This document shows positions 45,201 through 63,620 of a DNA stretch of 64,000 bases, piece after piece (the stretch's first letter is position 1; each line of letters begins with the position of its first letter). The notes under the pieces were generated by a model. That model saw only the letters and a program-made list of their open reading frames with translations. It was not told the DNA's origin and made no database searches. The stretch covers positions 1 to 64,000 of the IMG/VR virus record IMGVR_UViG_3300043009_000039. One strand, written 5' to 3'. The DNA comes from a virus (taxonomy: Duplodnaviria; Caudoviricetes). The translations under genes were made by a program, and so were the position numbers.

Positions 45201-45251
45201 AACTAAAAGTATTTGGTGAGTGAAAAGCGGGCGGCTCTCACCGCCCCGAAA

Positions 45252-45829: not shown

Positions 45830-45842
45830 AAAGGTAAGGTTT

Positions 45843-46031: not shown

Positions 46032-46076
46032 AACTTGTAGTTTTTAATTGGTTTGTGCAGTCGGGTTGCCCCGACT

Positions 46077-46454: not shown

Positions 46455-46511
46455 AATTCTAAGTTTTAATCGGTTAATAATTGGCGAGCGGTCTTGTCGA
46501 CCGCTTTAAGG

Positions 46512-46751: not shown

Positions 46752-46814
46752 AATATCTGAGTTTTATTGGTTGAACATGGTGAGCGGTCGTAAGTCCTAC
46801 AACCGCTCTTTAAG

Positions 46815-47360
46815 TTACAGCTCGCAGATGCCGATAACGTAATTGTGAGAGTCATAGCTGAACTCGACGGGCTGTTGCTTGACGGTATCGTAAAGCTCGC
46901 CGTTACAGATAATCAGCATCTCATCATCGTTTTTATCGTAAGCCGCGTCGCAGATTTTTTCGAATTGCTCTACCGCATCTTTTACTTCTTCGATGCTGTC
47001 GGCGTTTTCAAGCATCTCCATAAGATTGCCTTTATTCTCTTTGAAATACTGTTGCCCCGTACCGTAAAACGTAATGCAGTCGTCAGACAGATAACGCTCT
47101 ACGTCTATACCGTCACACATCCAATCGCGGAGTCTTGTGTAGAAATGATGCCCGTCGGGTCTGTCAAGCTCGAAGATGCATGTCTTTTTGAAGTACTTCT
47201 CTGCGACTTCGTTTGCAACGTCCATGTCCCTGAAGCCTATCAAAGCTTCTCTGACACCGTGAGGAAAATCGCTTTTGTCGTCGTTGGTTTCAACAATTCT
47301 AAGACTCGGGTAAACGTCCACAATGTGCTGTAACTTTTCGGAATATTCTTCTCGTGTCAT
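46815..47360 (-). CDS. Early cassette 27, acidic hypothetical
   Basis: 181 aa, D/E-rich. Confidence 0.8.
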   Translation of the reverse strand: MTREEYSEKLQHIVDVYPSLRIVETNDDKSDFPHGVREALIGFRDMDVANEVAEKYFKKTCIFELDRPDGHHFYTRLRDWMCDGIDVERYLSDDCITFYGTGQQYFKENKGNLMEMLENADSIEEVKDAVEQFEKICDAAYDKNDDEMLIICNGELYDTVKQQPVEFSYDSHNYVIGICEL

Positions 47361-47415
47361 AATGTATAAGTTTTATTGGTTAGTAGTAGCGGGCGGGACG
47401 TCCCACCCTTAAAGG

Positions 47416-47799
47416 TTAGAATTGAATGACCGAGCGTTTGTATTCCCAATGCCTTGCGTCCATAATCCTTGTCCGTTTCAGCTGACACAACGTGTATATC
47501 TTGTGAATATACTGAATGATTGCGGCTGTCGGGCGGGCGTCCTTTATGCAGTCCGCATTCTCTTCCGCAAACTTTCTCTCGTCAAACTCGGCGGAGTCTA
47601 CGATTCTCTTTATGCCCGTGTTTACCATATCTCCGTCGTCATACAATACGTAGCAATAGACTTCGGAATAATTATCGGACAAAGAGCGCAGGGCGTTTTT
47701 CTGATATGTTTTCTCGTTTTGTTTCGCCGTTTTCTTTTCAGCTCCCTCGGGATTAATGTTGAGTAACGGCAGTCTGTCATAATACATATTCTTTTTCAT
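47416..47799 (-). CDS. Early cassette 26, hypothetical
   Basis: ORF with hairpin/leader. Confidence 0.75.
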   Translation of the reverse strand: MKKNMYYDRLPLLNINPEGAEKKTAKQNEKTYQKNALRSLSDNYSEVYCYVLYDDGDMVNTGIKRIVDSAEFDERKFAEENADCIKDARPTAAIIQYIHKIYTLCQLKRTRIMDARHWEYKRSVIQF

Positions 47800-47848
47800 A
47801 ATCGTAAGTTTTGTTAGTACTCGTAGTCGGCCCGCAGACCGACTTTGG

Positions 47849-48190
47849 TCAATAAACGCTCTGTGGGTAATTTTTTAACGCCCAATCAATCGCTGATTGG
47901 CACTCTTTACGGGTTTTCCACTTAACGCCCACGCCGTTTAATTTTTGCGGTATGCCATGAAGATAGTCATATACCACCCACCATATTTTGCCGTCCAACG
48001 CTTCGCGTTTGATTGGCCTGAATCTGCCGAACAGTGCGCAGGAGCATTCAGCGAGTGTTCCTTTGCATTTAAATTCTCCGTTCAGATACGCGGTGTAGTA
48101 CATATCGCCCATACAGTTCCAATGGCGGTCAATTTCTCCGTATTTACCGCGATATTCATTCTTGGTGAACCATTGTGCATAATTTTCCAT
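47849..48190 (-). CDS. Early cassette 25, hypothetical
   Basis: ORF with hairpin/leader. Confidence 0.75.
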   Translation of the reverse strand: MENYAQWFTKNEYRGKYGEIDRHWNCMGDMYYTAYLNGEFKCKGTLAECSCALFGRFRPIKREALDGKIWWVVYDYLHGIPQKLNGVGVKWKTRKECQSAIDWALKNYPQSVY

Positions 48191-48242
48191 AATCGTAGCT
48201 TTATTGGTTAGATATTGTGGGCGGCTCTCGCACGCCCTTTGT

Positions 48243-48527
48243 TTAGAGTCTGCTGTAATATTTCAACAACGCGGCACAAATGTAGTAGTCATTGTAGTAT
48301 CGCATCCATCCGCCGCTTATGAGCATATCGTTTATCTCGCTGTCACGGAGCTTTCTTGTTTCCCGCTCTTCGATATACGATACTTTCATTGTTTCCTCAT
48401 CAACCGCCTCGATTTTGAACAACCCGTGACACAAACGGTCGTCGTCATCATCCGTGAGTTGTTTGAGGGCGTCATAAACATCTTCTGCACTGTATGCAAA
48501 TTCTACGGTTTTTTCTTTTGTTTCCAT
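48243..48527 (-). CDS. Early cassette 24, hypothetical (start METKEK)
   Basis: The leader motif fixes the start at 48527. Confidence 0.75.
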   Translation of the reverse strand: METKEKTVEFAYSAEDVYDALKQLTDDDDDRLCHGLFKIEAVDEETMKVSYIEERETRKLRDSEINDMLISGGWMRYYNDYYICAALLKYYSRL

Positions 48528-48574
48528 AATTCTTGTTTTTATTGGTTGGTTGCGGGCGGCATTAACCGCCACAA

Positions 48575-48859
48575 TTAAGGCAATGTTACGTAATAAAATC
48601 CGCACCCCTCTTTGATAAAATTAAAACCGTTCTGTCTAACCCAGTCAGCAAAGCCGATAAAATATTTACCGTTTACCTCCAAATACTCCCCGTAAATGGT
48701 TTTCCCGATTTTCGCGTCCGGTCTATCGAGGTAAAGATATTGAAATTCAATCCGTACACGAGTTTTTCCTTTCATAAAGAGTTCTGTGAGGTACTTTTCG
48801 ATTTGGCTGTAATCCAAATCTTTCGTCAAATCTGCTTTAATCTTTTGTGCTAAGTTCAT
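48575..48859 (-). CDS. Early cassette 23, hypothetical
   Basis: ORF with hairpin/leader. Confidence 0.75.
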   Translation of the reverse strand: MNLAQKIKADLTKDLDYSQIEKYLTELFMKGKTRVRIEFQYLYLDRPDAKIGKTIYGEYLEVNGKYFIGFADWVRQNGFNFIKEGCGFYYVTLP

Positions 48860-48909
48860 AATATGTAAGTTTTAGTTGGCAATTGTTAGCGGTCTGTGAC
48901 CGCTATCTT

Positions 48910-49238
48910 TCAATCGGTTAAAAAAACGTGATTCATCAATTGTTTCGGCACGCTTAACAGAACCGGGACAACCCACACGCCCCCGAAGGATTCATTATCA
49001 TTCAGCGCTTCGGCAAGCTCTTCGTATGAAAAAATCCAAGCTCTTCTTCGGAATAAATCTCTTCCTCGGTAAGATTGAATGTTTTTTCCATCAATTCAAG
49101 CGCGTCAATATTGTCATCGAACTTCTCCAAGTAGAACGCTTCAACGAATTTGCTTCTTTCGATTTCTTTACCGTTAACCGATATAGGACATACGAGAAAG
49201 AACGGTTCGTAACCGTCATGAGTCATAGTAATCTTCAT
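48910..49238 (-). pseudogene. Early cassette 22, frameshifted at a T6 tract (49029-49034)
   Basis: Frame 0 stops at 49002; the -1 frame continues SYEELAEALNDNESFGGVWVV... to a TGA at 48910 next to the following hairpin. Confidence 0.6.
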
Positions 49239-49292
49239 AATTATAAATTTTAGTTGGTTAATAATGTGGCCGGCCCGAAAGCCAGCCAATGT

Positions 49293-49577
49293 TTATGAAA
49301 GAGTGAAGTTGCCACGGTATAGCTTGAACACCATCGCTTGCGCTGTGTCGTACAATTTATCAAGGACTTGATTCTGCTCCTTTCGATGAGCCTTGTATTG
49401 CTCTTCGCTTGTAATCACTCCTTCAGCGATGAGCCTTTTTGTCTCGGCAACCTGCTTGGAGATAATCGCAATCTCGAGTCGTCTGTACTGGTCTCTGATT
49501 TCGAATATCGACTTGCCATTCGGCTGTAACTTCACCCATGAGGCTAATTTTTTGCCTACATTGAATCTCTGTTTCAT
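49293..49577 (-). CDS. Early cassette 21, hypothetical
   Basis: ORF with hairpin/leader. Confidence 0.75.
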   Translation of the reverse strand: MKQRFNVGKKLASWVKLQPNGKSIFEIRDQYRRLEIAIISKQVAETKRLIAEGVITSEEQYKAHRKEQNQVLDKLYDTAQAMVFKLYRGNFTLS

Positions 49578-49629
49578 AATTTCTATTTTATTGGTTAAAC
49601 ATTGGCGAGCGGAGTAATCCGCTCATTGA

Positions 49630-50040
49630 TTACCACTTAACTTGTTCTACCTCGTCAAGCTCTTTGCGAATCGTGTCTATCAGCTTTCGAGTCAAAGTAA
49701 CATCTTCGCACCCATACTCTATAACGGACGGACATTGGTTAATCAGCGATATTACGCCTTGTGTAACCATTAAGACCATGTAATCTTCAGGGTCGTCAAA
49801 CGGGTCTGTATAAGGGCCGCTGAGAACATCCCTTTCAAATTTCCAATAAGCCGACGCATCGGCACGCCATTCGCACAAGTATTCCAAGGCAAGCTCTTCG
49901 GACTCGGTGAGCGTGCCGTTGTAGTTTATGTCGTCCATAATGTAATCGCCTATATCACTTGCTTTGACTTCCATATCTTCTTTCCAAGGCAACTGCATTT
50001 TAGCCATTTCGCGGCAGTAATCAGTGAAATTCTTTTTCAT
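49630..50040 (-). CDS. Early cassette 20, acidic hypothetical
   Basis: 136 aa, D/E-rich. Confidence 0.75.
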   Translation of the reverse strand: MKKNFTDYCREMAKMQLPWKEDMEVKASDIGDYIMDDINYNGTLTESEELALEYLCEWRADASAYWKFERDVLSGPYTDPFDDPEDYMVLMVTQGVISLINQCPSVIEYGCEDVTLTRKLIDTIRKELDEVEQVKW

Positions 50041-50089
50041 AATTGTAAAGTTTTAAGTTTAGTTGTGAGCGGTAATAACCGCTCATTGA

Positions 50090-50632
50090 TTAGAAAGTGA
50101 GCACAAATTTATCATACGTATCCGAGTCCGCCACCTGCTCCATCTTCCCGCCAAGAAAGACGGCAACACCATAGTAGCAGCTCATCCCGCAACCGCTTTC
50201 AAAGTATGGTCGGAATCCGCCGTTACCGTAGTGTGCGCCAAGCGGGGCTTTTTTAGCTTTTCTTCTGCAACGCCACAACATTCCGCGGCATAACTGATTC
50301 ATTACGTCGGCTACCACGGTGGATTTTTTGTCGTAGCCCCAACCGCTGCAAGTGGCAGAGGCTTGCTTCCAATGTCCGTCGGAATACTGCGCCCATGCGG
50401 TGGCGTGCGGGTTGTAGCCCCAAGTTTTGTTGCGCTTCCATTCGATGTCGATTTCAAGCCGCTTTACGGGAAGCTCTTTATCCATCTGCTCAAATTCATC
50501 GTTTGCTCTCTTCAGCTCACCTCGTATGCCTCGCATCGTGGCTTTCTTTGAGTACTTTACGATATGTTCGATACACTTTACGGTAAGGTACGGATAGTCG
50601 TTTCTCAGGCTCTTTAATTCTTTGCGTGTCAT
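50090..50632 (-). CDS. Early cassette 19, hypothetical
   Basis: 180 aa; EWKRNKTWGYNP...SGWGYDK.S motif. Confidence 0.8.
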   Translation of the reverse strand: MTRKELKSLRNDYPYLTVKCIEHIVKYSKKATMRGIRGELKRANDEFEQMDKELPVKRLEIDIEWKRNKTWGYNPHATAWAQYSDGHWKQASATCSGWGYDKKSTVVADVMNQLCRGMLWRCRRKAKKAPLGAHYGNGGFRPYFESGCGMSCYYGVAVFLGGKMEQVADSDTYDKFVLTF

Positions 50633-50686
50633 AATTTCAAGTTTTTAATTGGTTAGTAATGGGTGTCGGGTCGCCCCGACAAATAA

Positions 50687-51031
50687 TCAAAACGTTTCGG
50701 AATGAACCCAAACGTTCCGTATTTCTATACGGATATACATTTCTCCGTTCTGATTAAAAACGTACATGTCGGTAAACTCATTCCATAGGTGAGTCCCATC
50801 GTGCCCGTTATGCACGGCTGTTATTTTAGTTATGTCGCCCCACGTCAGACGCTCTGCGATTTTACTATTCATAAAGTCACGCGCAAGCGCTTCGGTCTTG
50901 AAAGTGAAGCTGTCGATATTCGGCATGCGGGTTATTTTCGACGGTGTGTAATTTCCGCACATTTCGCCCAATCCTGAATAAGTTTCTTCAATGATACTTA
51001 CCACATAAACGTATTCTCTTTTATTTTCCAT
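50687..51031 (-). CDS. Early cassette 18, hypothetical
   Basis: ORF with hairpin/leader. Confidence 0.75.
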   Translation of the reverse strand: MENKREYVYVVSIIEETYSGLGEMCGNYTPSKITRMPNIDSFTFKTEALARDFMNSKIAERLTWGDITKITAVHNGHDGTHLWNEFTDMYVFNQNGEMYIRIEIRNVWVHSETF

Positions 51032-51065
51032 AATTTAAAAGTTTAATTGGTTGATTGCAAGGGGA

Positions 51066-51386
51066 TTACTCCCCTTTTTTGAACAGCTTGATTAAGACTT
51101 TGTCGCCTCTCTTGTAATAGCAGTGTTCGATTTCAAAGTGACTGTTCAACCGCCACTCCATTTCACCGAACGCTTTTGCGTATTCATTGTTGTCGTCGGC
51201 TTTCGAATAGTAGAAGAGAAGCTCGTCCGAGCCGTATTCCCATCCGAGAATTACGGGCGTTCGGCATATAAAGCCAACTGCACGGCATTCTTCGAAAATA
51301 TACTTGTCGTCGAATACCAAATTGCAAATCTTCTTCACTAACTTGTCGTCGTAGTCAAATACTGCGGGATTCAATTCTTCTTTCAT
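51066..51386 (-). CDS. Early cassette 17, hypothetical
   Basis: ORF with hairpin/leader. Confidence 0.75.
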   Translation of the reverse strand: MKEELNPAVFDYDDKLVKKICNLVFDDKYIFEECRAVGFICRTPVILGWEYGSDELLFYYSKADDNNEYAKAFGEMEWRLNSHFEIEHCYYKRGDKVLIKLFKKGE

Positions 51387-51432
51387 AATCTTTAAGTTTA
51401 ATGTTGGTTGCGGGCGGAATACTCCGCCCTTT

Positions 51433-51759
51433 TCAATCTTTGTGGTAAAAGGTTAGAAAGTAATTGTAGCTCGTTTTCCGAGTGTCTACGTAAATATCTT
51501 CGGGTAACGACTGTTTGACCGCCTCGATTCTGTCCTCCAACCGTTTCATGGAAGCCACGCTGATTGGCGATTCGGCCACGCATATCTTCAGGCGGTTGGT
51601 CGTTACGGCGTATGTGGCGCAGATTGGGACATTTGCGGCATAGCCGACCGACATTTCCTGCGACACTACTCTTGTGTCGAGGCGGCGGCCCTCGTCGAAC
51701 AACTCATCATAGATTTCACTTACCGAGATTGATTTTCCGTTTAATAATGCTCTCATCAT
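51433..51759 (-). CDS. Early cassette 16, hypothetical
   Basis: ORF with hairpin/leader. Confidence 0.75.
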   Translation of the reverse strand: MMRALLNGKSISVSEIYDELFDEGRRLDTRVVSQEMSVGYAANVPICATYAVTTNRLKICVAESPISVASMKRLEDRIEAVKQSLPEDIYVDTRKTSYNYFLTFYHKD

Positions 51760-51809
51760 AATTCAAAAGTTTTTAGGTGTGCGGTAGGCAAAGATAGCCT
51801 ACCTTTTGT

Positions 51810-52454
51810 TTAATACGGCGTCCCATCTTCAAGAAACTCGTATTCGTTCAAATTCAGTTCTTCTTCGACCGCCTCGTCCGAATAGCCCCAATCCACGTCG
51901 TCACCGTAGGCATCGGCCAAGGCGTCCACGCTTTTCTGTATCAAATCCTCCATCGTCGTATCGTTGTCGGGATGCTTCATGTAATCGACAATCGGCTGTA
52001 TCACCTCATAGTCGCAGCATACGCCCGTGAGCGGATAACTTGCCTCGGCGTCGTCGTACATTATTCGGCTCTTGCGCTGTTTCTTGTAGTCGCCCCGATA
52101 GAATGTACGCGGCTTGACCAAATACGGCATGATGTTGTTGCGTATGTACCGTTGAAGCAGTTTGCCGGACAACTCTTCAAGGCAGAGGTATTCGCTACCG
52201 TCCTCGGTGTCTATCATGTAGCACCAAGAGTCGTCGTTGAACTTCGGGCTGAACCATGTGCGTCCGCGGTCGTCTTTCACGTCGATACGTATGTCAAGCA
52301 GCTTCTCGAAAGCCTTGAGCGTTCCGATATAGTCGTCGGCGATACATTCTTCGTGATATGCGGCGCATTCGCCTCGCTTTGATTCAATCGCTTTTTTCTT
52401 TGCTTCTTCGGAAAGTTCGTCGTACTTGTAAAGTTTTACTTCTAAGGTTCTCAT
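51810..52454 (-). CDS. Early cassette 15, acidic protein of the widespread Y.YDELSEEAK.KAIE family
   Basis: 214 aa; LYKYDELSEEAKKKAIE start, NEYEFLEDG end. Confidence 0.8.
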   Translation of the reverse strand: MRTLEVKLYKYDELSEEAKKKAIESKRGECAAYHEECIADDYIGTLKAFEKLLDIRIDVKDDRGRTWFSPKFNDDSWCYMIDTEDGSEYLCLEELSGKLLQRYIRNNIMPYLVKPRTFYRGDYKKQRKSRIMYDDAEASYPLTGVCCDYEVIQPIVDYMKHPDNDTTMEDLIQKSVDALADAYGDDVDWGYSDEAVEEELNLNEYEFLEDGTPY

Positions 52455-52501
52455 AATTTCAAGTTTTAAGTTGGTTAATCGCGAGGGGCGAACCCCTCAA
52501 T

Positions 52502-52729
52502 TTACAAGACCTCGTGAGGCAGAACAGTGTCACGCGATACAACGTCGAACTCATGTGTGGAGCCGTTCAATTTAAGCCCGTAAATGTGCGCGTATTGGAT
52601 TTCTCTCGCCCACATGGATAGATTATCCAACTGCATCCTAAAACGCCTTAGAGCGGCATTTTTAGAGGTAAATATGGCTTTATAGCCGCAGGTCTGTCTG
52701 TCGAAAATTCTCAATTCATAAATTATCAT
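52502..52729 (-). CDS. Early cassette 14, hypothetical
   Basis: ORF with hairpin/leader. Confidence 0.7.
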   Translation of the reverse strand: MIIYELRIFDRQTCGYKAIFTSKNAALRRFRMQLDNLSMWAREIQYAHIYGLKLNGSTHEFDVVSRDTVLPHEVL

Positions 52730-52778
52730 AGCTTCTAAGTTTTATTGGTTGGTTGCAGACGGATTGCTCCGTCTTGAT

Positions 52779-52970
52779 TCAATATCCCTGCAGGTACGAC
52801 GGGGCTTCGTCGTCCTCGGTTTCACAAGCTCTGTGACGTTCCACAATTTCACAGTTGCAACCGTAGTTCATGAGCAGTTCTTCGCGCACGTCCGACGCTT
52901 CTTCGTATGTGTCGAAACAATCTTCAATGCATCCCGCGGCTTTATTCCAAAGTTCAAATTCAGTGTACAT
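52779..52970 (-). CDS. Early cassette 13, small acidic protein
   Basis: The leader fixes the ATG at 52970. Confidence 0.7.
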   Translation of the reverse strand: MYTEFELWNKAAGCIEDCFDTYEEASDVREELLMNYGCNCEIVERHRACETEDDEAPSYLQGY

Positions 52971-53013
52971 AATCAATTAGTTTTAGTTGTGAGCGGATTG
53001 CTCCGCCCGTGAT

Positions 53014-53532
53014 TCATTGTTGACCCCAATAAGTCCATGTTTTAACCTTTGACATTCCGTAGCGTTTGAGGTACGTCCGAAGTCGTTTCTCGAACTTGTC
53101 GCGTTCTTCGCGAACAAATCGTTCAAGCGGCTCGTAATCCTCTTCTTTCGGTTCGATACAGCTGTCGTAGTTGTGCCCCGAAATTCCGTAGATGTTCGCC
53201 TCTTTATAGGCGGTCATTTCGTAATGGTAGAGGTAGACTTCGCGTTTGGCGATACACTCGAGCATCCAGTCGTATTCGCGAAGATTCTCTTTCATGAAGT
53301 AGTCTTCGCTTGTACGCGCGTATTCAGCTTGTTCGACCGCTCTGTTATAATCGAAGCTGTCGTCAAAGCAGAACTTTGTCTCAATGCGCGGCTTGCCTAT
53401 AATTACGATTTTACCGTCGTCAAGTTTGATTGCATTCGAGAATCCCCGCATCATATATTCGGGGTTAAGGCCCATCTTTTCATATTCGCGCATGATTTCA
53501 TCCTGCAATTCATGTTGCTTGATATTCTTCAT
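53014..53532 (-). CDS. Early cassette 12, hypothetical
   Basis: 172 aa. Confidence 0.8.
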   Translation of the reverse strand: MKNIKQHELQDEIMREYEKMGLNPEYMMRGFSNAIKLDDGKIVIIGKPRIETKFCFDDSFDYNRAVEQAEYARTSEDYFMKENLREYDWMLECIAKREVYLYHYEMTAYKEANIYGISGHNYDSCIEPKEEDYEPLERFVREERDKFEKRLRTYLKRYGMSKVKTWTYWGQQ

Positions 53533-53633
53533 AATTCTAAGTTTTAGTTGGTTAAACAGTACGCGGCAACAGCTCGGGCCGCCGCCGCGTTTTTTAAGGC
53601 TGTACTATACAGCCCTCGCCAAATACCTCTCGG

Positions 53634-53969
53634 TTAATTCTTATACACCCTTTGGTTAATTCTTTTCACATACAGCGACCACGTTGTAAAGTGATTGGTT
53701 TCAAGGCATTGGCACGTCACACGGCCTATCAGGTCGCAATAGCCCTTTGTTTCGGGCGTGTTCATGTAGGATTCCGTGATTCGGTAAGTTCTTTCGGGTT
53801 CGCCGGGCGCTCTGTAAAACCACGAGCCGCAGCGCACACCGTATTCGATTTCCCGCATCTGTTCCTTTGCTTTCTTCAAACTTGTAAATGCAAATGTCGG
53901 AATGGAGCATGATTGCCACGTACTGCCTTCAGTCCACTGATGTTCGTTGATAATATAAATATAATCCAT
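53634..53969 (-). CDS. Early cassette 11, hypothetical
   Basis: ORF with hairpin/leader. Confidence 0.75.
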   Translation of the reverse strand: MDYIYIINEHQWTEGSTWQSCSIPTFAFTSLKKAKEQMREIEYGVRCGSWFYRAPGEPERTYRITESYMNTPETKGYCDLIGRVTCQCLETNHFTTWSLYVKRINQRVYKN

Positions 53970-54030
53970 AATGATAAGTTTTATTGGTTTAACACGGCAG
54001 ACGGTCTTTCAACCGTCTTTTTGCGGATAA

Positions 54031-54402
54031 TTACTCATCTTCGTCGTCGTAGCTCATCTCGATACAGTCGTGCCAATCGCCGTCGGCGTATATTTCGTCG
54101 GAGTAATAATCCGCCTCCCACTCCACGTCCTCTTCACTTGCAGACACAAATCTTCCGTTGGCGTCCTGCAGGATATAGCGGTCGGCGAGGTTCACTTGTC
54201 CGCCCCGCAGGTCGCGCACGAGTTCCATCGGATTGTCTTTGTATCGCTGAATATTAAAGAAATCTTCGTTCAGCTCATGCCACACACAATCGTAGTATCT
54301 CTGATTCTCGAAATATCGGTTCAGCAGGGCCAATCGTTGGCCATGTGTCAGACTCTTAAATTTTTCTTTCCATGCTTCGCGGCGAGAATATTCTTTTTCC
54401 AT
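54031..54402 (-). CDS. Early cassette 10, acidic hypothetical
   Basis: 123 aa, D/E-rich C-terminus. Confidence 0.75.
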   Translation of the reverse strand: MEKEYSRREAWKEKFKSLTHGQRLALLNRYFENQRYYDCVWHELNEDFFNIQRYKDNPMELVRDLRGGQVNLADRYILQDANGRFVSASEEDVEWEADYYSDEIYADGDWHDCIEMSYDDEDE

Positions 54403-54464
54403 AATTCATAAGTTTAATCGGTTAATAATTGCAAGAGGTCGGTCGGGAAACCAACCTCTTCGGC

Positions 54465-54770
54465 TCAGACAAGTTCAATGTCGATTCCATACGGAAGCGA
54501 TTCGCTATTTTCGTAATAGTCGAATTTATACGTAGGTCTAAGGCCCAGTTCGCGTTTACATAAGCGTTTTTCTATCACCTGCTTTATCTTCCCCTCGTCG
54601 ATTACTTTCGTAAGTTCGACTTCGTAATGTGGCGTAGACGTACCGATTGTTTCGTGCGTGATTCGTGCAATTGCAACAAGTCCGTGGAACTTGTCATAAA
54701 AATAGATGCCGCTCGCCGCGAACACTACGTACATTTCAACTCCGTAATTCTTGGTTCTTAAAAATTCCAT
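54465..54770 (-). CDS. Early cassette 9, hypothetical (start MEFLRTK)
   Basis: The leader fixes the ATG at 54770. Confidence 0.7.
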   Translation of the reverse strand: MEFLRTKNYGVEMYVVFAASGIYFYDKFHGLVAIARITHETIGTSTPHYEVELTKVIDEGKIKQVIEKRLCKRELGLRPTYKFDYYENSESLPYGIDIELV

Positions 54771-54832
54771 AACTGTAAATTTATTGGTTAGCTGTAAGAG
54801 GTCGCGTGACGACACACAACCTCCGATTCGTT

Positions 54833-55102
54833 TCATTTGTCAAGCGTGCAAGTCGCATAGTAAGGCGAAAAGCAACCGTCTTTATAAAGCGACGCCGCAT
54901 AGCCCCGACGGGTCTTGTAGACTTTCACGCAGCCCGATTCATACGAGCTTCGTTCTTTGCACACAAAGCCCCCTACCGCCTTGTAGGTTTTCGGCTTCTT
55001 TTCTTTCGGTTTGATTGAACCCGCGTAATGCATTGTCACGCCCGTAAACAGTTCGCCGTTTACCTTAAAAGGCTTTTCAGAGGTAAGTTTGTAAGTTTTC
55101 AT
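54833..55102 (-). CDS. Early cassette 8, basic hypothetical
   Basis: ORF with hairpin/leader. Confidence 0.7.
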   Translation of the reverse strand: MKTYKLTSEKPFKVNGELFTGVTMHYAGSIKPKEKKPKTYKAVGGFVCKERSSYESGCVKVYKTRRGYAASLYKDGCFSPYYATCTLDK

Positions 55103-55162
55103 AATTCAGTAGTTTTATTGGTTCGTGGAAGAGGGCGTGTTTTCGGGCACACCCTCCGTAAT

Positions 55163-55288
55163 TCAGTCGATTTCGACCGTCGAATCGTTCAAATCCACGT
55201 GCGCGTATAAATCTTCGGCAAAGTCGGGTTCTATAAACTCTTCAAATACGCGCAATTCGCCTTGGAAATAAATAGTTCCGTCAAGCAT
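55163..55288 (-). CDS. 41-aa acidic peptide coupled to cassette 7
   Basis: MLDGTIYFQGELRVFEEFIEPDFAEDLYAHVDLNDSTVEID; stop abuts the next hairpin. Confidence 0.6.
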   Translation of the reverse strand: MLDGTIYFQGELRVFEEFIEPDFAEDLYAHVDLNDSTVEID

Positions 55289-55466
55289 TTTTGTTTCCTC
55301 CCTTCTTTTCGTCGGTCGGGTCTATTATTTCCCCTATCGGAAACACGCCCATAAGGCCCGACAGAAACGCCAAATAGCAAACATCCGTGCCCATAAAGTT
55401 GTAGAACACAAACACGGCGAAAGCTTCAAAGAATACAAACAGAAGAAACAGATAAATCGTTCTCAT
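55281..55466 (-). CDS. Early cassette 7, small membrane protein
   Basis: 61 aa, two hydrophobic helices. Confidence 0.7.
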   Translation of the reverse strand: MRTIYLFLLFVFFEAFAVFVFYNFMGTDVCYLAFLSGLMGVFPIGEIIDPTDEKKGGNKNA

Positions 55467-55529
55467 AATTCATAAAGTTTTATTGGTTGGTAACAGTAAG
55501 CGGTTCGACCCCGAAAGAGCCAAACCGCC

Positions 55530-55790
55530 TTAATTCATTCCCATCCCCACGGACACAGCTCGCCCGCGGGGGGTAATCTGCCACGACAGTTCGTTCCTGC
55601 CGTCGTAGATAGTCCATCCGATGCCGTTGTCGCCCCTTTTATGCAGGGCGATATGCAGACAGCGGCGCACGATTCGCTTCAGTTCGGTTGAGTGTAAAGT
55701 CTTACAGAAACTTTCACTCGCGATAATTGCGGAAAACTCACCCTTTCGGGCAAAGTTCGTCCATGCGATTTCATCGTAAAAGGTTTTCAT
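55530..55790 (-). CDS. Early cassette 6, hypothetical (start MKTFYDE)
   Basis: The leader fixes the ATG at 55790. Confidence 0.7.
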   Translation of the reverse strand: MKTFYDEIAWTNFARKGEFSAIIASESFCKTLHSTELKRIVRRCLHIALHKRGDNGIGWTIYDGRNELSWQITPRGRAVSVGMGMN

Positions 55791-55851
55791 AAATAGTTTT
55801 ATTGGTTGGTTCGGAGAGGGTTCGCCCCGATACGGTTTGAACCCCCTGATT

Positions 55852-56037
55852 TCAGGCGAACATATCGTACAGTTCTTCAAGGCGTGCCTTTGCGTCCTCG
55901 ATTCGGGCGAATAGAGTCGTTCGGTTCCAGTACTCGAAGTGATTCTTTTCACCTACTGTTTCAAACGAAATTTCGGCTACTTGTCCGTCGTGTTCGTAGC
56001 TGTTCCATGCCACGTAATAGTAAGTTTTTGCTTTCAT
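55852..56037 (-). CDS. Early cassette 5, hypothetical
   Basis: ORF with hairpin/leader. Confidence 0.7.
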   Translation of the reverse strand: MKAKTYYYVAWNSYEHDGQVAEISFETVGEKNHFEYWNRTTLFARIEDAKARLEELYDMFA

Positions 56038-56105
56038 AATTTATTAAGTTTTATTGGTTGGTTAATTCGCAGACGGTTCGACCCCGAAGAATCGAACCCC
56101 CTGAT

Positions 56106-56543
56106 TCAGATTTGGTCCAGAAAGTCGGCCAAGTCTTTTTCCGTAGCTTTCAGTCCGAGCGCACGTTTGCGCATCAGATATTCTTTGATTCCGAATCGGG
56201 ATATAAGAACATCCCGATTTGATTCGTCCTGAAAGAGTCGGTCGATAAGTTCGTCTTGCATAGCAAGCTCGTACTTCAGATTTTCGGCCTCCTGCTTCGA
56301 CGCTTCCAGTTCTTTGCGAGCGTCCTCCAACGCTTTCGCAGTCCCTTTGAGGTCTGCGATAATCGCATAGTTCTTCCGCGCTTCGTTTACCGCGGACACA
56401 AACAAACCCTTTGTGTTTTCAGGGAGTTTGCTCCAAATTTCACAGAACATATTTTTATCTAACTCGCAGAACATATAGATATAGTTCGCAACTTTGTACT
56501 CTTCGGCCTTGCAGCCTCTTTCGATAAATTCATTAAGTAACAT
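56106..56543 (-). CDS. Early cassette 4, coiled-coil hypothetical
   Basis: 145 aa; YMFCELDKNMFCEIW motif followed by heptads. Confidence 0.75.
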   Translation of the reverse strand: MLLNEFIERGCKAEEYKVANYIYMFCELDKNMFCEIWSKLPENTKGLFVSAVNEARKNYAIIADLKGTAKALEDARKELEASKQEAENLKYELAMQDELIDRLFQDESNRDVLISRFGIKEYLMRKRALGLKATEKDLADFLDQI

Positions 56544-56608
56544 AACAGTAAGTTTTATTGGTTAAACGTGGAAAGAGGCTTCAGGATTAAGCCCGAAACC
56601 TCTCTAAT

Positions 56609-56794
56609 TTAAAATTCGAAGTCTGTAAATACCTTGAATGTTCCTTTATGAAACGATTCGTAGTTCGTGTCGTCAAATTTGTAGACGGAATACATTTTGG
56701 TCGCACGGTCGTATTCGCCGCGCACCCAAACAACGGCGGACGATTCTTTCATTTTAAAGAGTTCGCCCTTTTTAAGTTCTGATAATTTTTTCAT
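56609..56794 (-). CDS. Early cassette 3, small hypothetical
   Basis: 61 aa (LSELKKGELF...VWVRGEYDR). Confidence 0.75.
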   Translation of the reverse strand: MKKLSELKKGELFKMKESSAVVWVRGEYDRATKMYSVYKFDDTNYESFHKGTFKVFTDFEF

Positions 56795-56839
56795 AATTCG
56801 TTTGATTGATTCGTAAAGGGTCGAATTGCCCCGACCCGA

Positions 56840-57193
56840 TTAAGCAAAGTAATTCTTTACAGTTTGGTAGTCCAGTCCGTAACGCTTACGTATTCGCGCA
56901 ATTTCGGCGTTAAATTCGCGTGCTGAGTCGAAACAGCACAGTTCGAGGGCTTTAATCAATTCAAGCCCGTAAAGGCTCGGATTATTCACCTCGATAGCTC
57001 GCAGTTCGCCCCGACGGTTTCGGGCGCAATTATCCACGAATTTTATCGTTTCTTTGTACCCTTTGCCCGCCCCTTTCTTTTTTCGGCTCGATACGACGTA
57101 TTTGCCCCGATTTTTCGGTTCAGGCTCGCACGGTTCAGGCTCGCACGCTTTTTTAGCTTTATAAAGCCCTTCATAGTACTCTAATAAGTTCAT
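56840..57193 (-). CDS. Early cassette 2, hypothetical (downstream of the hammerhead)
   Basis: 117 aa. Confidence 0.7.
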   Translation of the reverse strand: MNLLEYYEGLYKAKKACEPEPCEPEPKNRGKYVVSSRKKKGAGKGYKETIKFVDNCARNRRGELRAIEVNNPSLYGLELIKALELCCFDSAREFNAEIARIRKRYGLDYQTVKNYFA

Positions 57194-57214
57194 AATTGTT
57201 TAAGTTTGGTTCAT

Positions 57215-57273
57215 AGTCCGACGCCCAGTAGTAAGGGCGTTTCGTCGCAATTCTCAGCGACTCTTCAGGGACT
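57215..57273 (-). ncRNA. Type I hammerhead ribozyme; predicted cleavage after GUC, between 57220 and 57219
   Basis: Minus strand: AGUCC CUGAAGA GUCGC-UGAGAAUU-GCGAC GAA ACGCCC-UUACUACU-GGGCGU C GGACU; all core nucleotides and three stems present. Confidence 0.88.
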
Positions 57274-57531
57274 TTAAAACTGCATCGTTTCAAAAGATAC
57301 AATTTCAAAGTAATTCAAATTCACCTCGATTTTCGGGCACAGTTTTTCCCCGAAAAAGTACAGTTTAACGCCAGTAAAGCGCATGAAACGGTTTATAAGC
57401 CGCTCAGGCGTGTCTTGATAACGGTCGTTGAAATACGATACGACGAACCCGTTTTCAACTCTTAATCTCGGTTCAATCAGGGCAAATTCAAGCCCTGATT
57501 CTTTTTCGCGTAATACGATTTTGTAGTTCAT
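57274..57531 (-). CDS. Early cassette 1, hypothetical (downstream of mini-tRNA C)
   Basis: 85 aa; its stop abuts the hammerhead. Confidence 0.7.
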   Translation of the reverse strand: MNYKIVLREKESGLEFALIEPRLRVENGFVVSYFNDRYQDTPERLINRFMRFTGVKLYFFGEKLCPKIEVNLNYFEIVSFETMQF

Positions 57532-57558
57532 AACAGTAAGTATTTTAGTTCAACATAG

Positions 57559-57606
57559 TAAGGGCGCGGGGGTTCGAACCCCGTAAAAATTCCACAATTC
57601 GCCCCT
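57559..57606 (-). ncRNA. Anticodon-less tRNA-like element C (48 nt)
   Basis: AGGGGCG / 16-nt linker containing GG / CGGGG-TTCGAAC-CCCCG / CGCCCTT-A: 7-bp acceptor stem plus 5-bp T-stem with a canonical T-loop. Confidence 0.7.
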
Positions 57607-58140: not shown

Positions 58141-58197
58141 TTAGAGTTCTGACCAACTCTAACGCTACAAAAGTAGGTATAATCGATTATATGCAAA
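58141..58197 (-). promoter_or_regulatory. Early promoter TTTG-N18-TACTTTTG followed by an 8-bp 5' hairpin (58141-58162)
   Basis: -33 at 58194-58197 and -7 at 58168-58175 on the minus strand; TTAGAGTT/AACTCTAA hairpin. Confidence 0.55.
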
Positions 58198-58483: not shown

Positions 58484-58545
58484 ACTACCTACTACCTACT
58501 ACCTACTACCTACTACCTACTATCTATATAAGTAAGTAGTAGGTA
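58484..58545. repeat. Tandem (ACTACCT)x5 plus one degenerate copy and an inverted partial copy
   Basis: 58484-58525 tandem; AGTAGTAGGTA at 58535-58545. Confidence 0.9.
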
Positions 58546-58744
58546 CTTTGCGAGCGGACGACGCACCACCGCGTTTTTTGGTCAAAAATAGAAGAAAATT
58601 AGCTATTTTGGCGTAAAAGTCACTTTCCGAAAAACAGAATAATTTTAAGGGAAAAAAGAGTATATAGGTATAATAGAAACTACCTACATTTGTGCTGTAG
58701 AATGAAACAAGCCCCTGCAGGGGCAAACTTAAATACTTACAATT

Positions 58745-59512
58745 ATGAAAAAAGAAACAAAGAAAGCTACAAAGGGGGCAAAGAAAGCCACGGCAAAGAA
58801 AGCCGAAAGCGAAAGCACGGCGTTAACCGTTATTGCCGAAACAAACAATAACGCCGAAACTGAAACAGTCGACGCCGAAACAGTCGAATGCACGACGTTG
58901 GTACTTTGCACGGCAAAGAAAGCAAAAAAGGAAAGCGAAAGCGAAAAAAAGGAAAGCGCAAACTTTCGAAAAGCTTTCAAGACTGAAGCAAACAGTTACG
59001 GCGCGGCTATCCGTAACATGCAGGCAATTGCAAGCAAAGGAAATAAGCGGGCGCAAAAGATATTAGCCGCTTTCGGCTTGTCGACAAAATCGAGCGCAAA
59101 GGAAATTAGCACGGCCCGCGCCGCTATCTTTGCCGCGTATCCTTTTGCAACGGCTGAAGGTACTCTTTGCCGTTTTCGCTTACTGAATACTGAAGAAAGC
59201 GTTTTTTGTGGCCTGAACAAAAAGCTTTTCGGCGTTTTTGAGGCGGCGAAAAGTTGGGGCGAAATTCTTGATGAAAGCTACATTAGCACGGTTAAGGGCC
59301 GCGCGCAAGCTATTATCGAGCCGCTAACCGTCGAAAGGGAAAGGGGGGTTATTTCCTTTGTATACGCGCCTTTATATTGCATCGACGGCGCGAAAGTAGG
59401 CAAAGATTATAGCCGCGAATATACGGCGTATCTTTGCGCGAAAAGCGACGCTAATAAAGCGGCAAAGAATGCACGCGCGAAAGCTTTCGAAGAAAGCACG
59501 ACAAACGAATAA
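58745..59512 (+). CDS. K/A-rich hypothetical protein (histone-like basic N-terminus)
   Basis: 255-aa ORF with an A-rich leader and a TACATTTG box at 58685-58692. Confidence 0.65.
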   Translation: MKKETKKATKGAKKATAKKAESESTALTVIAETNNNAETETVDAETVECTTLVLCTAKKAKKESESEKKESANFRKAFKTEANSYGAAIRNMQAIASKGNKRAQKILAAFGLSTKSSAKEISTARAAIFAAYPFATAEGTLCRFRLLNTEESVFCGLNKKLFGVFEAAKSWGEILDESYISTVKGRAQAIIEPLTVERERGVISFVYAPLYCIDGAKVGKDYSREYTAYLCAKSDANKAAKNARAKAFEESTTNE

Positions 59513-59724
59513 AGCACGATACAACACACACAAAGGGGGCAAAGATGCAATATTCTTTGCCCCTTTTCTTTTGCCCTTATACTACCTATTACGACGCCTC
59601 GAGCGCTCGAAAGCACGTACTACCTACATACTCTATCTTTTCAACCACTACAAAAGGGGGGCTTAATCCTTACTTTTCATCATGATGAAACAATAGATAC
59701 CTACTTACTTTCTCTATTGATATT

Positions 59725-59763
59725 CTCTTTACTCTTTACTCTTTACTCTTACTCTTACTCTTT
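59725..59763. repeat. Tandem (CTCTTTA)x3 (CTCTTA)x2
   Basis: Read directly. Confidence 0.85.
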
Positions 59764-60242
59764 TCGCTTTACTCTATCTATCTATCTATATATATACGTT
59801 TGTACTCTTTATTCTCGACAATAGGATATTAGCTTATATGTTTCCGTTTGTTTCGGTTGGTATGTTTTCGGAAAATGTTTTTTGCAAGCTGTTTTTTTCG
59901 ACGCCTTGAGGCCCTTTGCTTACTTTCTCTTTGCCGTCTAATTACCCCCCTTTCAACGTCTATTTTCACGCAATTACGCCCCTTTATTGTCTACCTACTT
60001 ACTACCTACTTTTGCCCCTTTGCGCCCCCTTTTCGGCTTAATAACGCCTACAATACGACCGCTTCAGCCGCGTTTTACGCCCTTTTCAATGCAAGGGGGG
60101 GGGCGGCAAAGCCAGGACAAACAGGGGGGGCTACCTTCTCTCAAATTTTTTTCTGTTTTTTTTATTTTCAGGACTATCTATATGCTTCTTTCTTTACTGC
60201 TTACCTTTCTTGCAGATTTTTTTATTTTATTTTTTCATTACA

Positions 60243-60373
60243 GCTAATCCCCCTTCTTTCTATGCTAATTCCCCTTCTTTTCTTCTGAATTTCTGCGACA
60301 TGATTTCTCGGATGCTTTGTTCTCGCTTGGGATTTTCTTGCAATGATACGCCTTGTTCAAATTTCTGCGACAT
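60243..60373. repeat. 21-bp imperfect tandem (60243-60283) and direct repeat AATTTCTGCGACAT (60288-60301, 60360-60373)
   Basis: Read directly. Confidence 0.75.
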
Positions 60374-61048
60374 TGCATCGGCGACAAGGGACTGCTGCGA
60401 TTTTGGAACGAAAAAAGCGATTGTACTTAGGATAGATAAAGCTATTAAGCAAGATTGAATAAATTTCAATAAAATTAACGCCAATCTATGATAGGGACGA
60501 CGCGGCTGCGACATTGGGAGGCTGATACTATGGCGCAGAGCGAAGCAACGAGAGCAAGGACGCTGAAAAACGATTCAGGGCGCGATTTCAGACGTTTGGC
60601 TGAACAACCGTCCGACTTAGACGCGATAAGCGATTCTGCGCGATTTTAGGGGGCTTTTCAGGGCATATTCGCGTCTGCGTCCGACTCTGCCGTCTGAATC
60701 GCTTGACGGGAACGAAAAAGAGGGCGCAAGGACGACCCGCCGAAGGAGGAGGAGCGACTGCCCGAAGAGCGAACGAATTGACGCAGGAGCGGAGGCGACG
60801 AGGCGGGGAGGGAACATAACGGGCGCGAAGCGGGCAAGCAAAAGAGGCGGAGCTTTTCTTTTTAGATGCGAAGCATCTTTTTCTTTATATAATATATATA
60901 TTAATACAGAAGTATATGATTAAGTATAGAGAACTCTATATAGGAGAGTTTAATTCTTTCTTTTTTAGGGGGATGTAGGGGGACATTTTTCTTTCTTATT
61001 AGAGAACCTGTCAGCAAGCGTGTTTTTTTGTCGCTGTTTTCCGAGTGG

Positions 61049-61254
61049 AACTTTTAGGAAAAGTTGGTCTTTATCTTATCCGACCGCTGTTTTTCGGTTT
61101 CCTCCTCTTCTGTCGTGTTCCAAGCGCTTCATTGTCAGCCAATTATAACTTTTTCCAAAAGTTCGGTTCGTGTTTTTACCCCTCTTCTCCCGTTAGATTT
61201 TTCGCGTTTCATACGTTGCTGATTGTCAAGCAATTGTAACTTTTCCCAAAAGTT
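61049..61254. promoter_or_regulatory. Three perfect 17-bp palindromes AACTTTT-N3-AAAAGTT (operator-like)
   Basis: 61049-61065, 61147-61163, 61238-61254; a one-mismatch copy at 62008-62024. Confidence 0.75.
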
Positions 61255-61368: not shown

Positions 61369-61989
61369 ATGGAAATAATCAAGAGAGAGATGTTCGGCGC
61401 CGAGCTTCGTCAGCGGGCCGACAATGATTTTCTTTGTGTGACCGATTTGGTCAAGGTGTGCAACAGTCGTCGACTTGCCCGCGGAGGCGGATACGCGACC
61501 GTGCATCAATGGATAGCCAGCAAACAGACTTCCGAATACCGTGCCCTGCTCCGCCCGATTTACGGAGAAACCTATACCGCCGAACTTGGGCGCGGCAAGA
61601 CCTCGTGGGCGCATCCCCTGCTCTTCATCCGACTCGTCATGATGTTTGAACCGAGATTCAGAGTCGAGGAATACCCTTGGCTTCTTGAATGCCTCGTGAA
61701 ATACCGCCTCGCCGGGTCTGTCGAGGAGCGCGGATTTATCGGTGCGCTCTATGCGAACTCCACCTCGCAGTCGGCTTTTATCCGCGAGTACACATACTTC
61801 GATGCGTTGATTCTGAATGTAGTGGGCGCTCTGAATTGGCACGAAGCCACACCGTCGCAGACCGAATACCGCTTCGTCATATACGACTACATCACCCAAT
61901 ACTGCGGCGTGTTTTACAAAAACAACATGGAGGCGGTGCGATTGGGGCTTCTGAAAGCGAAGGAATGGAAACTTTCTCTTACGGATTAG
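61369..61989 (+). CDS. KilA-N domain DNA-binding protein
   Basis: LRQRADNDFLCVTDL...QWIASKQTSEY...GRGKTSWAHPLLF; ATG at 61369. Confidence 0.75.
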   Translation: MEIIKREMFGAELRQRADNDFLCVTDLVKVCNSRRLARGGGYATVHQWIASKQTSEYRALLRPIYGETYTAELGRGKTSWAHPLLFIRLVMMFEPRFRVEEYPWLLECLVKYRLAGSVEERGFIGALYANSTSQSAFIREYTYFDALILNVVGALNWHEATPSQTEYRFVIYDYITQYCGVFYKNNMEAVRLGLLKAKEWKLSLTD

Positions 61990-62037
61990 CCATTTTTACC
62001 TTACTGAAACTTTTTCTAAAACTTTTCCTACATTTTC

Positions 62038-62068
62038 TTTGAATTTGAGAAAAGTGTCTTTATATTTG
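62038..62068 (+). promoter_or_regulatory. Consensus Bacteroidetes promoter TTTG-N19-TATATTTG
   Basis: TTTG 62038-62041, TATATTTG 62061-62068. Confidence 0.7.
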
Positions 62069-62235
62069 TATCACCATTTGTAAGGATTGATTTGTTTCTC
62101 CCCGACGAGAACGCGGGGGGTGCCCGTAAAAGGGCGCAAAGTCATGAATCTGTGAAGATTATAAAGTTCTCTGCAATTTTTCTCCGATTTTGCCATGCGG
62201 TGCCGTTTTTTGATTAGGATTTTTAGGCATCGCGA

Positions 62236-62286
62236 GGGTGCGGCGCAGTCGGGCGCTTATCGGGTTCGAATCCCGCGCATCCACCA
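62236..62286 (+). ncRNA. Anticodon-less tRNA-like element A (51 nt) with G3.U70, A73 and encoded CCA
   Basis: GGGTGCG / GCGC-AGTCGG-GCGC TTAT / CGGG-TTCGAAT-CCCG / CGCATCC-A-CCA. Confidence 0.75.
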
Positions 62287-62394
62287 TGCGGCGACTTAGA
62301 CCTTCAAGTTTGTTAAGTGTTTAATTAAATGGGTGTTAGTATGCTTATCTTGATTACTTGGAGTATTTTGGCAATGGTCGAAGTTGTCGCAGAC

Positions 62395-62443
62395 GGGAGC
62401 GCCGCGCGGGCGGTCGTCGAAGGTTCGAGTCCTTCCGCTCCCA
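62395..62443 (+). ncRNA. Anticodon-less tRNA-like element B (49 nt)
   Basis: GGGAGCG / CCGC-GCGG-GCGG TCGTC / GAAGG-TTCGAGT-CCTTC / CGCTCCC-A. Confidence 0.75.
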
Positions 62444-62501
62444 CTTGGAATCAGGACATATCTCGACTGTCCTCTCGGTAAAGATGAAGAAACTCTATGT
62501 G

Positions 62502-62551
62502 AGAATCGTCTGGCGCGTGTAGTCGAGAACCGCGTTGGGCGATTCTTTTTT
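62502..62551 (+). terminator. 16-bp hairpin terminator with T6
   Basis: AGAATCGTCTGGCGCG / CGCGTTGGGCGATTCT followed by TTTTT. Confidence 0.7.
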
Positions 62552-62753
62552 AAGCGGAAGTTTCAAGGCTGTCCCTTTTTATGAGGTGGTTTCAAACCAC
62601 CCCATCCCAGAGAGGGGGGCGTCGTTTTACAGACCCCCATGAGTATCAGCGAACTAAATAAACAACCACATAAAAAAGGGCCGCTTTTGGGTGACTCCTT
62701 CTTTAAAACAAACGTCCGCAAGGGCAATGTATTAACTTTTAAAATTACAAATT

Positions 62754-63620
62754 ATGGAATTAACGAAATTCAAAGGACAGTTTGGCGACGTGAGAGTCGT
62801 CGTTGAAAATGAAGAACCGTGGTTTTGCTTAAAGGATGTCTGTGAATCCCTCGGATTGACCTCTAAGGGGGTGGCTCAACGCCTCGGAGATGGGGTAATT
62901 TCAAATTACCCCATCGTTGACTCCCTTGGAAGAGAGCAGGTTGCCTCTTTCGTAAACGAAGATGGGCTTTATGATGTAATTCTTGAAAGTCGCAAGCCTG
63001 AAGCAAAAGCTTTCCGTAAGTGGGTGACATCCGAGGTTCTCCCGTCCATCCGTAAGAACGGACTCTATGCAACCGACGACCTTCTCAAAAAGACGTTGGA
63101 CGACCCCGACTTCCTTATCAACATCCTCGTAAAGGTTAGAGATGAGCGTCAGGCCCGCATCGAAGCTGAAAAGATTGCCGCCGAGCAGAAAGAACATATC
63201 AACGAGCTTTCCGCCGCCGTTTCGGAGATGCAGGTTAAGTGTGACTACGTAGAACAGATTCTCAACTCCAAGGAAGCAATCACGGTGACACAGCTCGCAG
63301 CCGACTACGGCATGTCGGCAAAAGCCATGAACAAGCTCCTTGCCCACATGAAGATTCAGCGCAAGGTAAACGGTCAGTGGGTACTCTACTCGAAATATGT
63401 GTCATATCAATATGTCGACTCCAAGACGTATTCGATTAAGGACTCGAAGGGCGGTCAGCACGCCGCGGTAAACACGCTTTGGCGTCAGAGAGGGCGACTG
63501 TTTCTTTACGAGGAATTGAAGAAGATTGGCGTACTGCCTATCCTCGAACGCGGTCTTGACTACAAGCTCGACCTCGACGCAATCCTGAACCGCGAAGTCG
63601 AAGATGCCCAATACCTCTAA
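62754..63620 (+). CDS. BRO-N + ANT/KilA-C phage antirepressor
   Basis: FGDVRVVVENEEPWFCLKDVC...FVNEDGLYDVILESRKPEAKAFRKWVTSEVLPSIRKNG; TVTQLAADYGMSA...WRQRGRLF. Confidence 0.92.
   Translation: MELTKFKGQFGDVRVVVENEEPWFCLKDVCESLGLTSKGVAQRLGDGVISNYPIVDSLGREQVASFVNEDGLYDVILESRKPEAKAFRKWVTSEVLPSIRKNGLYATDDLLKKTLDDPDFLINILVKVRDERQARIEAEKIAAEQKEHINELSAAVSEMQVKCDYVEQILNSKEAITVTQLAADYGMSAKAMNKLLAHMKIQRKVNGQWVLYSKYVSYQYVDSKTYSIKDSKGGQHAAVNTLWRQRGRLFLYEELKKIGVLPILERGLDYKLDLDAILNREVEDAQYL

Follow-up and report, generated by a model that had tools for sequence, protein, structure and literature searches.

Three mini-tRNAs without an anticodon arm in the early region of a bacteriophage genome, possible cutting signals for host tRNA-maturation enzymes

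Results

We found that the 51-nt tRNA look-alike first reported in this phage DNA is real, and that it has two paralogues in the same genome. The three elements (El1, El2 and El3) keep the acceptor and the T-arm of a tRNA, with a short D-like hairpin and a linker in between. They may be modules that are excised by host RNase P and 3'-end enzymes, by which the early transcripts would be cut, a reading that in our judgement has about an even chance of being right. The window, the whole stretch of DNA that was analysed, comprises bases 1-64000 of an 85,821-bp IMG/VR virus record rated complete by CheckV. The phage encodes a terminase, a portal protein, a major head protein, a sliding clamp, a DnaB-like helicase, RecT and DNA methylases. 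The features discussed below are collected in Table 1.

Table 1. Position and basis of the mini-tRNAs, the features around them and two phage proteins of interest. Coordinates are those of the window unless the genome is named.
Feature	Position	Strand	Basis and remarks
El1, mini-tRNA without anticodon arm	62236-62286	+	51 nt; structure read and covariance model
El2, paralogous mini-tRNA	62395-62446	+	structural scan and covariance model; proposed fold is the MFE
El3, paralogous mini-tRNA	57556-57606	-	structural scan and covariance model
Bacteroidota-type promoter match, TTTG-N19-TATATTTG	62038-62068	+	pattern scan, with which a sigma-70-type scan agrees; ~170 nt upstream of El1
Bacteroidota-type promoter match, leftward	58168-58197	-	pattern scan; ~560 nt upstream of El3
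El1-El2 spacer, 108 nt	62287-62394	+	ends pair into a long hairpin, from directly after the El1 CCA to 4 nt before El2
Terminator-like long GC-rich hairpin with six-U run	62501-62551	+	sequence and fold
Array of 34 small genes	44229-57531	-	ORFs; GC-rich hairpin and leader AACCAATAAAACTTAnnATT before the ATG of nearly every gene
Type I hammerhead core, ORF1-ORF2 gap	57215-57273	-	core complete by eye: CUGAAGA, GAAA, GUC triplet, three stems
189-aa protein with polynucleotide kinase 3'-phosphatase domain	33430-33999	-	PF08645, 69.9 bits
MBL-fold metal-dependent hydrolase	79307-80020 of the genome (L002:15307-16020)	+	phrog_392, E 4e-47

Anatomy of the mini-tRNA El1

The sequence was re-read, and the 51-nt coordinates and the anatomy given in the first-pass annotation proved exact. 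El1 consists, in order, of GGGTGCG / GCGC-AGTCGG-GCGC / TTAT / CGGG-TTCGAAT-CCCG / CGCATCC / A / CCA. The acceptor has 7 bp (G1-C72, G2-C71, G3.U70, U4-A69, G5-C68, C6-G67 and G7-C66), the hairpin has 4 bp with the loop AGUCGG, and a linker of 4 nt leads to a T-stem of 4 bp with the loop UUCGAAU, followed by A73 and an encoded CCA. Compared with a canonical tRNA, each of the three elements retains the 7-bp acceptor, the T-loop consensus, the G53-C61 pair and the discriminator. With 4 bp and not 5, the T-stem of El1 shows a departure already flagged as non-canonical, while both paralogues have 5 bp; the acceptor/T stack of El1 is 11 bp, in comparison with the usual 12 bp. The canonical anticodon arm with its 7-nt loop is absent: the D-like hairpin is separated from the T-arm by no more than 4-5 nt in the three elements, and in El1, for which the absence of this arm had been claimed, by the 4-nt linker.

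The proposed fold of El1 has a free energy of -21.9 kcal/mol as against an MFE of -22.4, a difference of 0.5, with z = -1.6, and thermodynamics alone therefore cannot single it out. ARAGORN was expected to miss El1 and indeed reported 0 genes, neither tRNA nor tmRNA, across the whole 85.8-kb genome; Rfam at gathering scores gave no match for El1. Because tRNA finders and Rfam miss them, mini-tRNAs of this kind go unannotated. In E-value mode the Rfam tmRNA model RF00023 reached 21.6 bits on El1 against a gathering score of 47, skipping 328 model positions and matching the two ends only. The other two elements gave 17.0 and 12.0 bits, and in all three the acceptor and T-arm alone align. A permuted or two-piece tmRNA was rejected, as ARAGORN finds none.

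Two paralogues and their covariation

El2 and El3 were found by a structural scan over the entire genome. El2 has the acceptor GGGAGCG/CGCTCCC (G3-C70), the hairpin CCGC-GCGG-GCGG, a linker of 5 nt and a T-arm with a 5-bp stem and the loop UUCGAGU, and its A73 is followed by CUU. El3 has the acceptor AGGGGCG/CGCCCTT (G2.U71, G3-C70), the hairpin AATT-GTGG-AATT, a linker of 4 nt and a T-arm with a 5-bp stem and the loop UUCGAAC, with CUA after A73. In the three elements the hairpin is joined to the acceptor with 0 nt between them, the hairpin loop ends in GG at its 3' side, and the T-arm consensus GGTTCRANYCC, G53-C61 and A73 are kept. The combination of G3.U70 and CCA belongs to El1 alone; El2 presents G3-C70 and ACUU, El3 presents G3-C70 and ACUA. 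As El2 and El3 have neither G3.U70 nor CCA, the shared feature under selection is the top half and elbow of a tRNA and not the alanine identity.

With El2 as its only input sequence, a covariance model recovered El1 and El3 with E ~7e-6 in a search of the whole genome with filters off, the next match having an E of 0.7. Sequence identity among the paralogues is ~60%, and all 47 scored cells are standard pairs. An Infernal search for homologues with compensatory changes had been suggested as a check on El1, and it was answered within the same genome: 9 of the 16 pairs show two-sided compensatory changes, spread across all three helices. The covariation values were reached by none of 500 shuffles and the signal collapsed when the partners were slid by 1-3 columns, for a comparison of three sequences only, in an alignment fitted to the model.

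The frequency of such structures was estimated with a strict pattern (7/7 acceptor pairs, a T-stem of 4-5 bp closed by G53-C61, a TTCRANN loop and 12-25 nt in between). The real genome contains 4 matches to this pattern, whereas 300 simulations from a first-order Markov model gave 0.043 on average and none of them reached 3. The three elements are thus beyond chance in this genome. The fourth match, 56075-56127 (-), is weak, spans a stop codon, has three G.U acceptor pairs and is given no score by the covariance models; it is more likely an ordinary hairpin of the gene array than a mini-tRNA.

Promoters, strand and host

The full Bacteroidota promoter pattern TTTG-N17-23-TAnnTTTG is matched only 5 times in the window, both strands counted, and two of these five point into mini-tRNAs. 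The phage genes have no Shine-Dalgarno sequence and their leaders are A-rich. Judging from the promoter type and from such leaders, the host is probably a member of the Bacteroidota. The G.U pairs (G3.U70 in El1 and G2.U71 in El3) make the folds strand-specific, and for all three elements the strand that folds is the strand read from the nearest Bacteroidota-type promoter.

The divergent control region contains an array of six ACTACCT repeats and their inverted partner at 58484-58549 (iterons 58484-58526) and many GCAAAG/CTTTGC repeats at 58760-60300, which may constitute a replication origin or regulator-binding sites. The minimum of the cumulative GC skew lies close to these repeats. Four 33-nt repeats with the palindrome AACTTTT-N3-AAAAGTT were also observed (61033-61065, 61131-61163, 61222-61254 and 61992-62024), one degenerate copy being immediately upstream of the El1/El2 promoter; by their sequence they look like operators.

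The rightward unit

El1 and El2 belong to a unit of ~480 nt, which presents in order a promoter, hairpins, El1, a self-paired spacer, El2, a hairpin and a terminator-like hairpin. A 491-nt stretch containing both elements folds better than all of 100 shuffles (z = -3.4). We found no convincing gene in this unit. An ORF of 50 codons, 62329-62481 (+), covers the spacer and El2, and gene callers predict a 46-aa version of it; its N-terminus is hydrophobic, it has no family match and it is probably not a real gene.

Searches for other RNA functions of the unit were negative. Within 61900-62800, Rfam gave no match indicating a FopS/GibS-like small RNA, even with E values of up to 10 allowed, and the leader, spacer and trailer have no antisense targets in the phage genome. 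A perfect 16-nt inverted repeat connects the El2 trailer (62450-62465) with the inside of a minus-strand gene (37837-37852); the two RNAs have the same sense and so cannot pair.

The leftward transcript

A gap of 24 nt separates the 3' end of El3 from the ATG (57531) of ORF1, the gene that heads the leftward array. The slot before ORF1 is occupied by El3, the one before ORF2 by a hammerhead core, and the one before at least 30 downstream genes by a GC hairpin. The hammerhead core, on the same predicted transcript as El3, reached 17.3 bits with the Rfam model Hammerhead_1 (gathering 34) and 18.7 bits with the RAGATH-1 hammerhead, also below gathering. The array genes tested against Pfam and PHROG gave no family match, and the neighbouring early-region proteins of 206/216 aa and 255 aa have no homologues beyond this phage.

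Relatives and similar elements elsewhere

Three other contigs, from three other JGI samples, carry the region with 100% identity. The INPHARED phage collection gave no DNA match, and a single-sequence search of IMG/VR with TerL found no close relative; with a TerL alignment, 374 relatives were obtained. No intein is present in this phage's TerL, and many of the relatives (P0015, P0016, P0019 and others) have a TerL of ~880 aa with Hint and LAGLIDADG (intein) domains.

We applied a covariance model (R2) to 60 TerL-relative records. It found mini-tRNAs in one of them and ordinary tRNAs in three others, with a prefilter that may miss weak copies; on the first loci the short matches were mostly partial alignments of real tRNAs. 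The positive record (L206; 74.6 kb, TerL 44% identical) has two clear mini-tRNAs and one weaker one, at 1397-1460, 1501-1555 and 1852-1903 (+), in an ORF-poor stretch of 850 nt at a divergent gene junction. Their middles are A-rich D-loop-like loops, not hairpins, and they have no CCA and no G3.U70.

Pattern scans gave isolated examples. A scan for a short G3.U70 acceptor with CCA returned mostly tRNA-Ala, plus a handful of short TLD-like RNAs. The GGCG...CGCC scan matched mostly parts of long-arm tRNAs and yielded one clear mini-tRNA, on a viral contig (L244:9910-9960, +). The acceptor pattern of El1 had no match in bacterial genomes and one in an unrelated high-GC metagenome contig (L271:8070-8117, +), where an element with GGGTGCG/CGCATCC and G3.U70, and no CCA, sits in an intergenic gap. 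Another unrelated contig (L010) contains a single mini-tRNA.

Phage-encoded partners were also sought. Among the phage genes examined there is no aminoacyl-tRNA synthetase, SmpB, CCA enzyme, RNA ligase or clear RNase Z, and the genes next to the phosphatase gene listed in Table 1 include no recognisable kinase or RNA ligase. The MBL-fold hydrolase, encoded near the RecT and methylase genes, has a weak match to Pfam Lactamase_B_2, a family that includes RNase Z, and no PDB sequence match.

Discussion

Cutting signals for host enzymes

We infer transcription, cleavage and purpose as follows. El1, El2 and El3 would be transcribed as tRNA-shaped modules, in which the acceptor stacked on the T-arm would form an elbow with the D-like hairpin. 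The top half and the elbow of tRNAs are what RNase P and RNase Z recognise, as do the CCA-adding enzyme and the enzymes that modify the T-loop. The host machinery would treat the modules as pre-tRNAs, with RNase P cutting 5' of position 1 and, 3' of A73, the CCA-adding enzyme acting along with RNase Z or exonucleases. Excision would sever both primary transcripts of the early region, which diverge from each other, at defined sites: that of El3 would split a leader of ~550 nt from the opening cistron of the 34-gene array read leftward, and that of El1 and El2 would cut the rightward transcript of ~480 nt into hairpin RNAs. The freed mini-tRNAs would perhaps be by-products, and El1 alone would also have what alanylation needs.

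This reading is the best supported one, because the elements head both early transcripts and lie beside the hammerhead core and the hairpin-punctuated array. The 11-bp stack of El1 counts against it, as do the products of the El1-El2 unit, which would be only hairpin RNAs, and the presence of such elements in just one of the 60 TerL-relative records with the model used here. Nor did the searches yield orthologous copies by which a conserved position could be recognised. Punctuation of mRNA does not apply to the El1-El2 unit, since it has no convincing gene. If cleavage does take place, one early region would hold three RNA-end-forming devices, namely tRNA mimics, a hammerhead core and hairpins, and the phage would offer a bacterial-virus counterpart to mitochondrial tRNA punctuation. 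Our literature search found no paper on anticodon-less mini-tRNAs as processing elements of phages.

Alanine identity and other explanations

The main alanine identity set of bacteria is A73, G2-C71, G3.U70 and G4-C69 (PMC9976931). Of the alanine identity first proposed for El1, G3.U70, A73 and the encoded CCA are present, and so is G2-C71; the fourth pair differs, U4-A69 replacing G4-C69, and the stack has 11 bp. By the established identity rules (PMC9976931), it is plausible that a processed El1 would be a substrate of AlaRS. The encoded CCA stands out because the real tRNAs of related phages, which end in ACGA or ACAA, do not encode it, and by a rough estimate the chance of finding CCA and G3.U70 together is ~1 in 1000 per element, so that El1 is perhaps more than a cutting signal. 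El1 might thus act in trans, charged by host AlaRS and titrating AlaRS, EF-Tu or SmpB by imitating either the tmRNA TLD or an alanine minihelix, and would then damp ribosome rescue or host translation, with El2 and El3 serving otherwise; we regard this as unlikely. Sequence-specific minihelices are reported to inhibit growth (Hipps and Schimmel 1995), which would favour it, and so would the recorded TLD-only tmRNA of phage DS6A, a similar molecule being an inhibitor of tmRNA (PMC4131195). The suggested TLD mimicry has G3.U70 and CCA on its side in El1 only, and is weakened by the absence of the stemless D-loop and P2a, by the score of 21.6 versus 47 bits with the tmRNA model and by paralogues, like the elements of L206, that have neither G3.U70 nor CCA. 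Moreover, the genomic setting (heads of early transcripts, hammerhead, hairpin array) points to RNA processing, and SmpB, synthetases and aminoacyl-transferases are all missing among the phage genes examined. Drift could explain the G3.U70 of El1, since the copies have G.U at two different acceptor positions. A mixed scheme seems to us quite doubtful, in which El1 would be excised, matured to its encoded CCA, charged by host AlaRS and would compete early for AlaRS, EF-Tu or SmpB, the uncharged El2 and El3 being cutting signals. If it were true, one RNA design would be both a processing signal and an inhibitor of translation or ribosome rescue. El1 offers a simple test case for whether a natural anticodon-less RNA is alanylated in a cell.

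The three elements could instead be stable elbow decoys acting in trans, which would soak up a host factor with affinity for the acceptor, T-arm or elbow of tRNAs, for example a tRNA-directed defence nuclease or a tRNA-processing or -modifying enzyme, a role that we hold to be improbable. Having no anticodon loop, such decoys could not be disabled there. Against this, most known tRNA-directed defence nucleases recognise the anticodon loop, which is absent here. Elbow features are conserved in the three copies and the elements are placed early, behind promoters. The PNK3P-type 3'-phosphatase domain is known from phage RNA end-healing, and its presence hints at a conflict over RNA ends, yet no RNA ligase or kinase was found beside it and no partner or target was identified. 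With three copies only, and El3 at 24 nt from a start codon, the layout fits a role in cis better. The lack of the elements in most relatives, together with the ordinary tRNA arrays that related phages carry and that make an origin from tRNA plausible, would suit decaying tRNA genes that have lost the anticodon arm, or chance look-alikes, without function. This reading is disfavoured, and we consider it very unlikely: the sequences have diverged with 47 of 47 scored pairs intact and compensatory changes in every helix, one architecture appears three times compared with ~0.04 per genome by chance, and all three copies are oriented with local transcription. That the mini-tRNAs act as DNA, being tRNA-derived attachment sites or origin-associated structures, can hardly be believed. 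They do flank the repeat-rich control region with its iterons, and a small serine recombinase gene is present at 40311-41054. However, attachment sites copy just the 3' part of a tRNA and match a host gene, whereas here both acceptor strands are present and covary, the El1 pattern matched no bacterial genome, and the G.U pairs would be C.A mismatches on the opposite strand.

Comparison with known systems

For the cutting-signal reading, the plant-mitochondrial t-elements offer a parallel, as these tRNA-like folds with a T-arm motif are considered to guide cleavage by RNase P and RNase Z at mRNA ends (Forner et al. 2007, PMC1920247). The two kinds of element have in common a tRNA-like fold that does not decode and a GGTTCRANYCC motif, and both sit inside longer transcripts and near mRNA ends, El3 preceding a start codon and all three phage elements being downstream of same-strand promoter matches. 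The t-elements are organellar and the mini-tRNAs belong to a bacteriophage, in which the fold is uniform (51-52 nt), the anticodon arm is wholly gone and the 4-bp D-like hairpin sits directly on the acceptor. For the phage elements, processing is a prediction.

The mascRNA/menRNA molecules are cut out by RNase P, which thereby sets where the RNA upstream of them ends. These are likewise small tRNA-like folds of ~50-60 nt, and the corresponding model (RF01684) scored 27.8 bits over the full length of El3 and 18.1 bits on El1, the gathering score of 42.5 not being reached. They derive from nuclear lncRNAs of vertebrates and retain a short anticodon stem, and the relation to the phage elements is analogy, not homology.

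G3.U70 and A73 in alanine minihelices (Francklyn and Schimmel 1989, cited in PMC9976931) are reported to be enough for AlaRS in vitro. El1 resembles them in its acceptor/T-arm helix with G3.U70 and A73. The minihelices are laboratory constructs with a 12-bp helix, whereas El1 is natural, has 11 bp and U4-A69, and bears an extra D-like hairpin.

The nearest published phage case is a tmRNA of mycobacteriophage DS6A that has the TLD only (tmID 11587 of the tmRNA Website; Hudson, Lau and Williams 2014, PMC4131195). With tmRNA in general as the yardstick, El1 stands apart in having no stemless D-loop and no P2a, and two of the three copies have no alanine identity. Like the DS6A molecule, the mini-tRNAs are phage-encoded and have an acceptor and a T-arm with no decoding or tag part, and El1, by the same yardstick, shares G3.U70, A73 and CCA.
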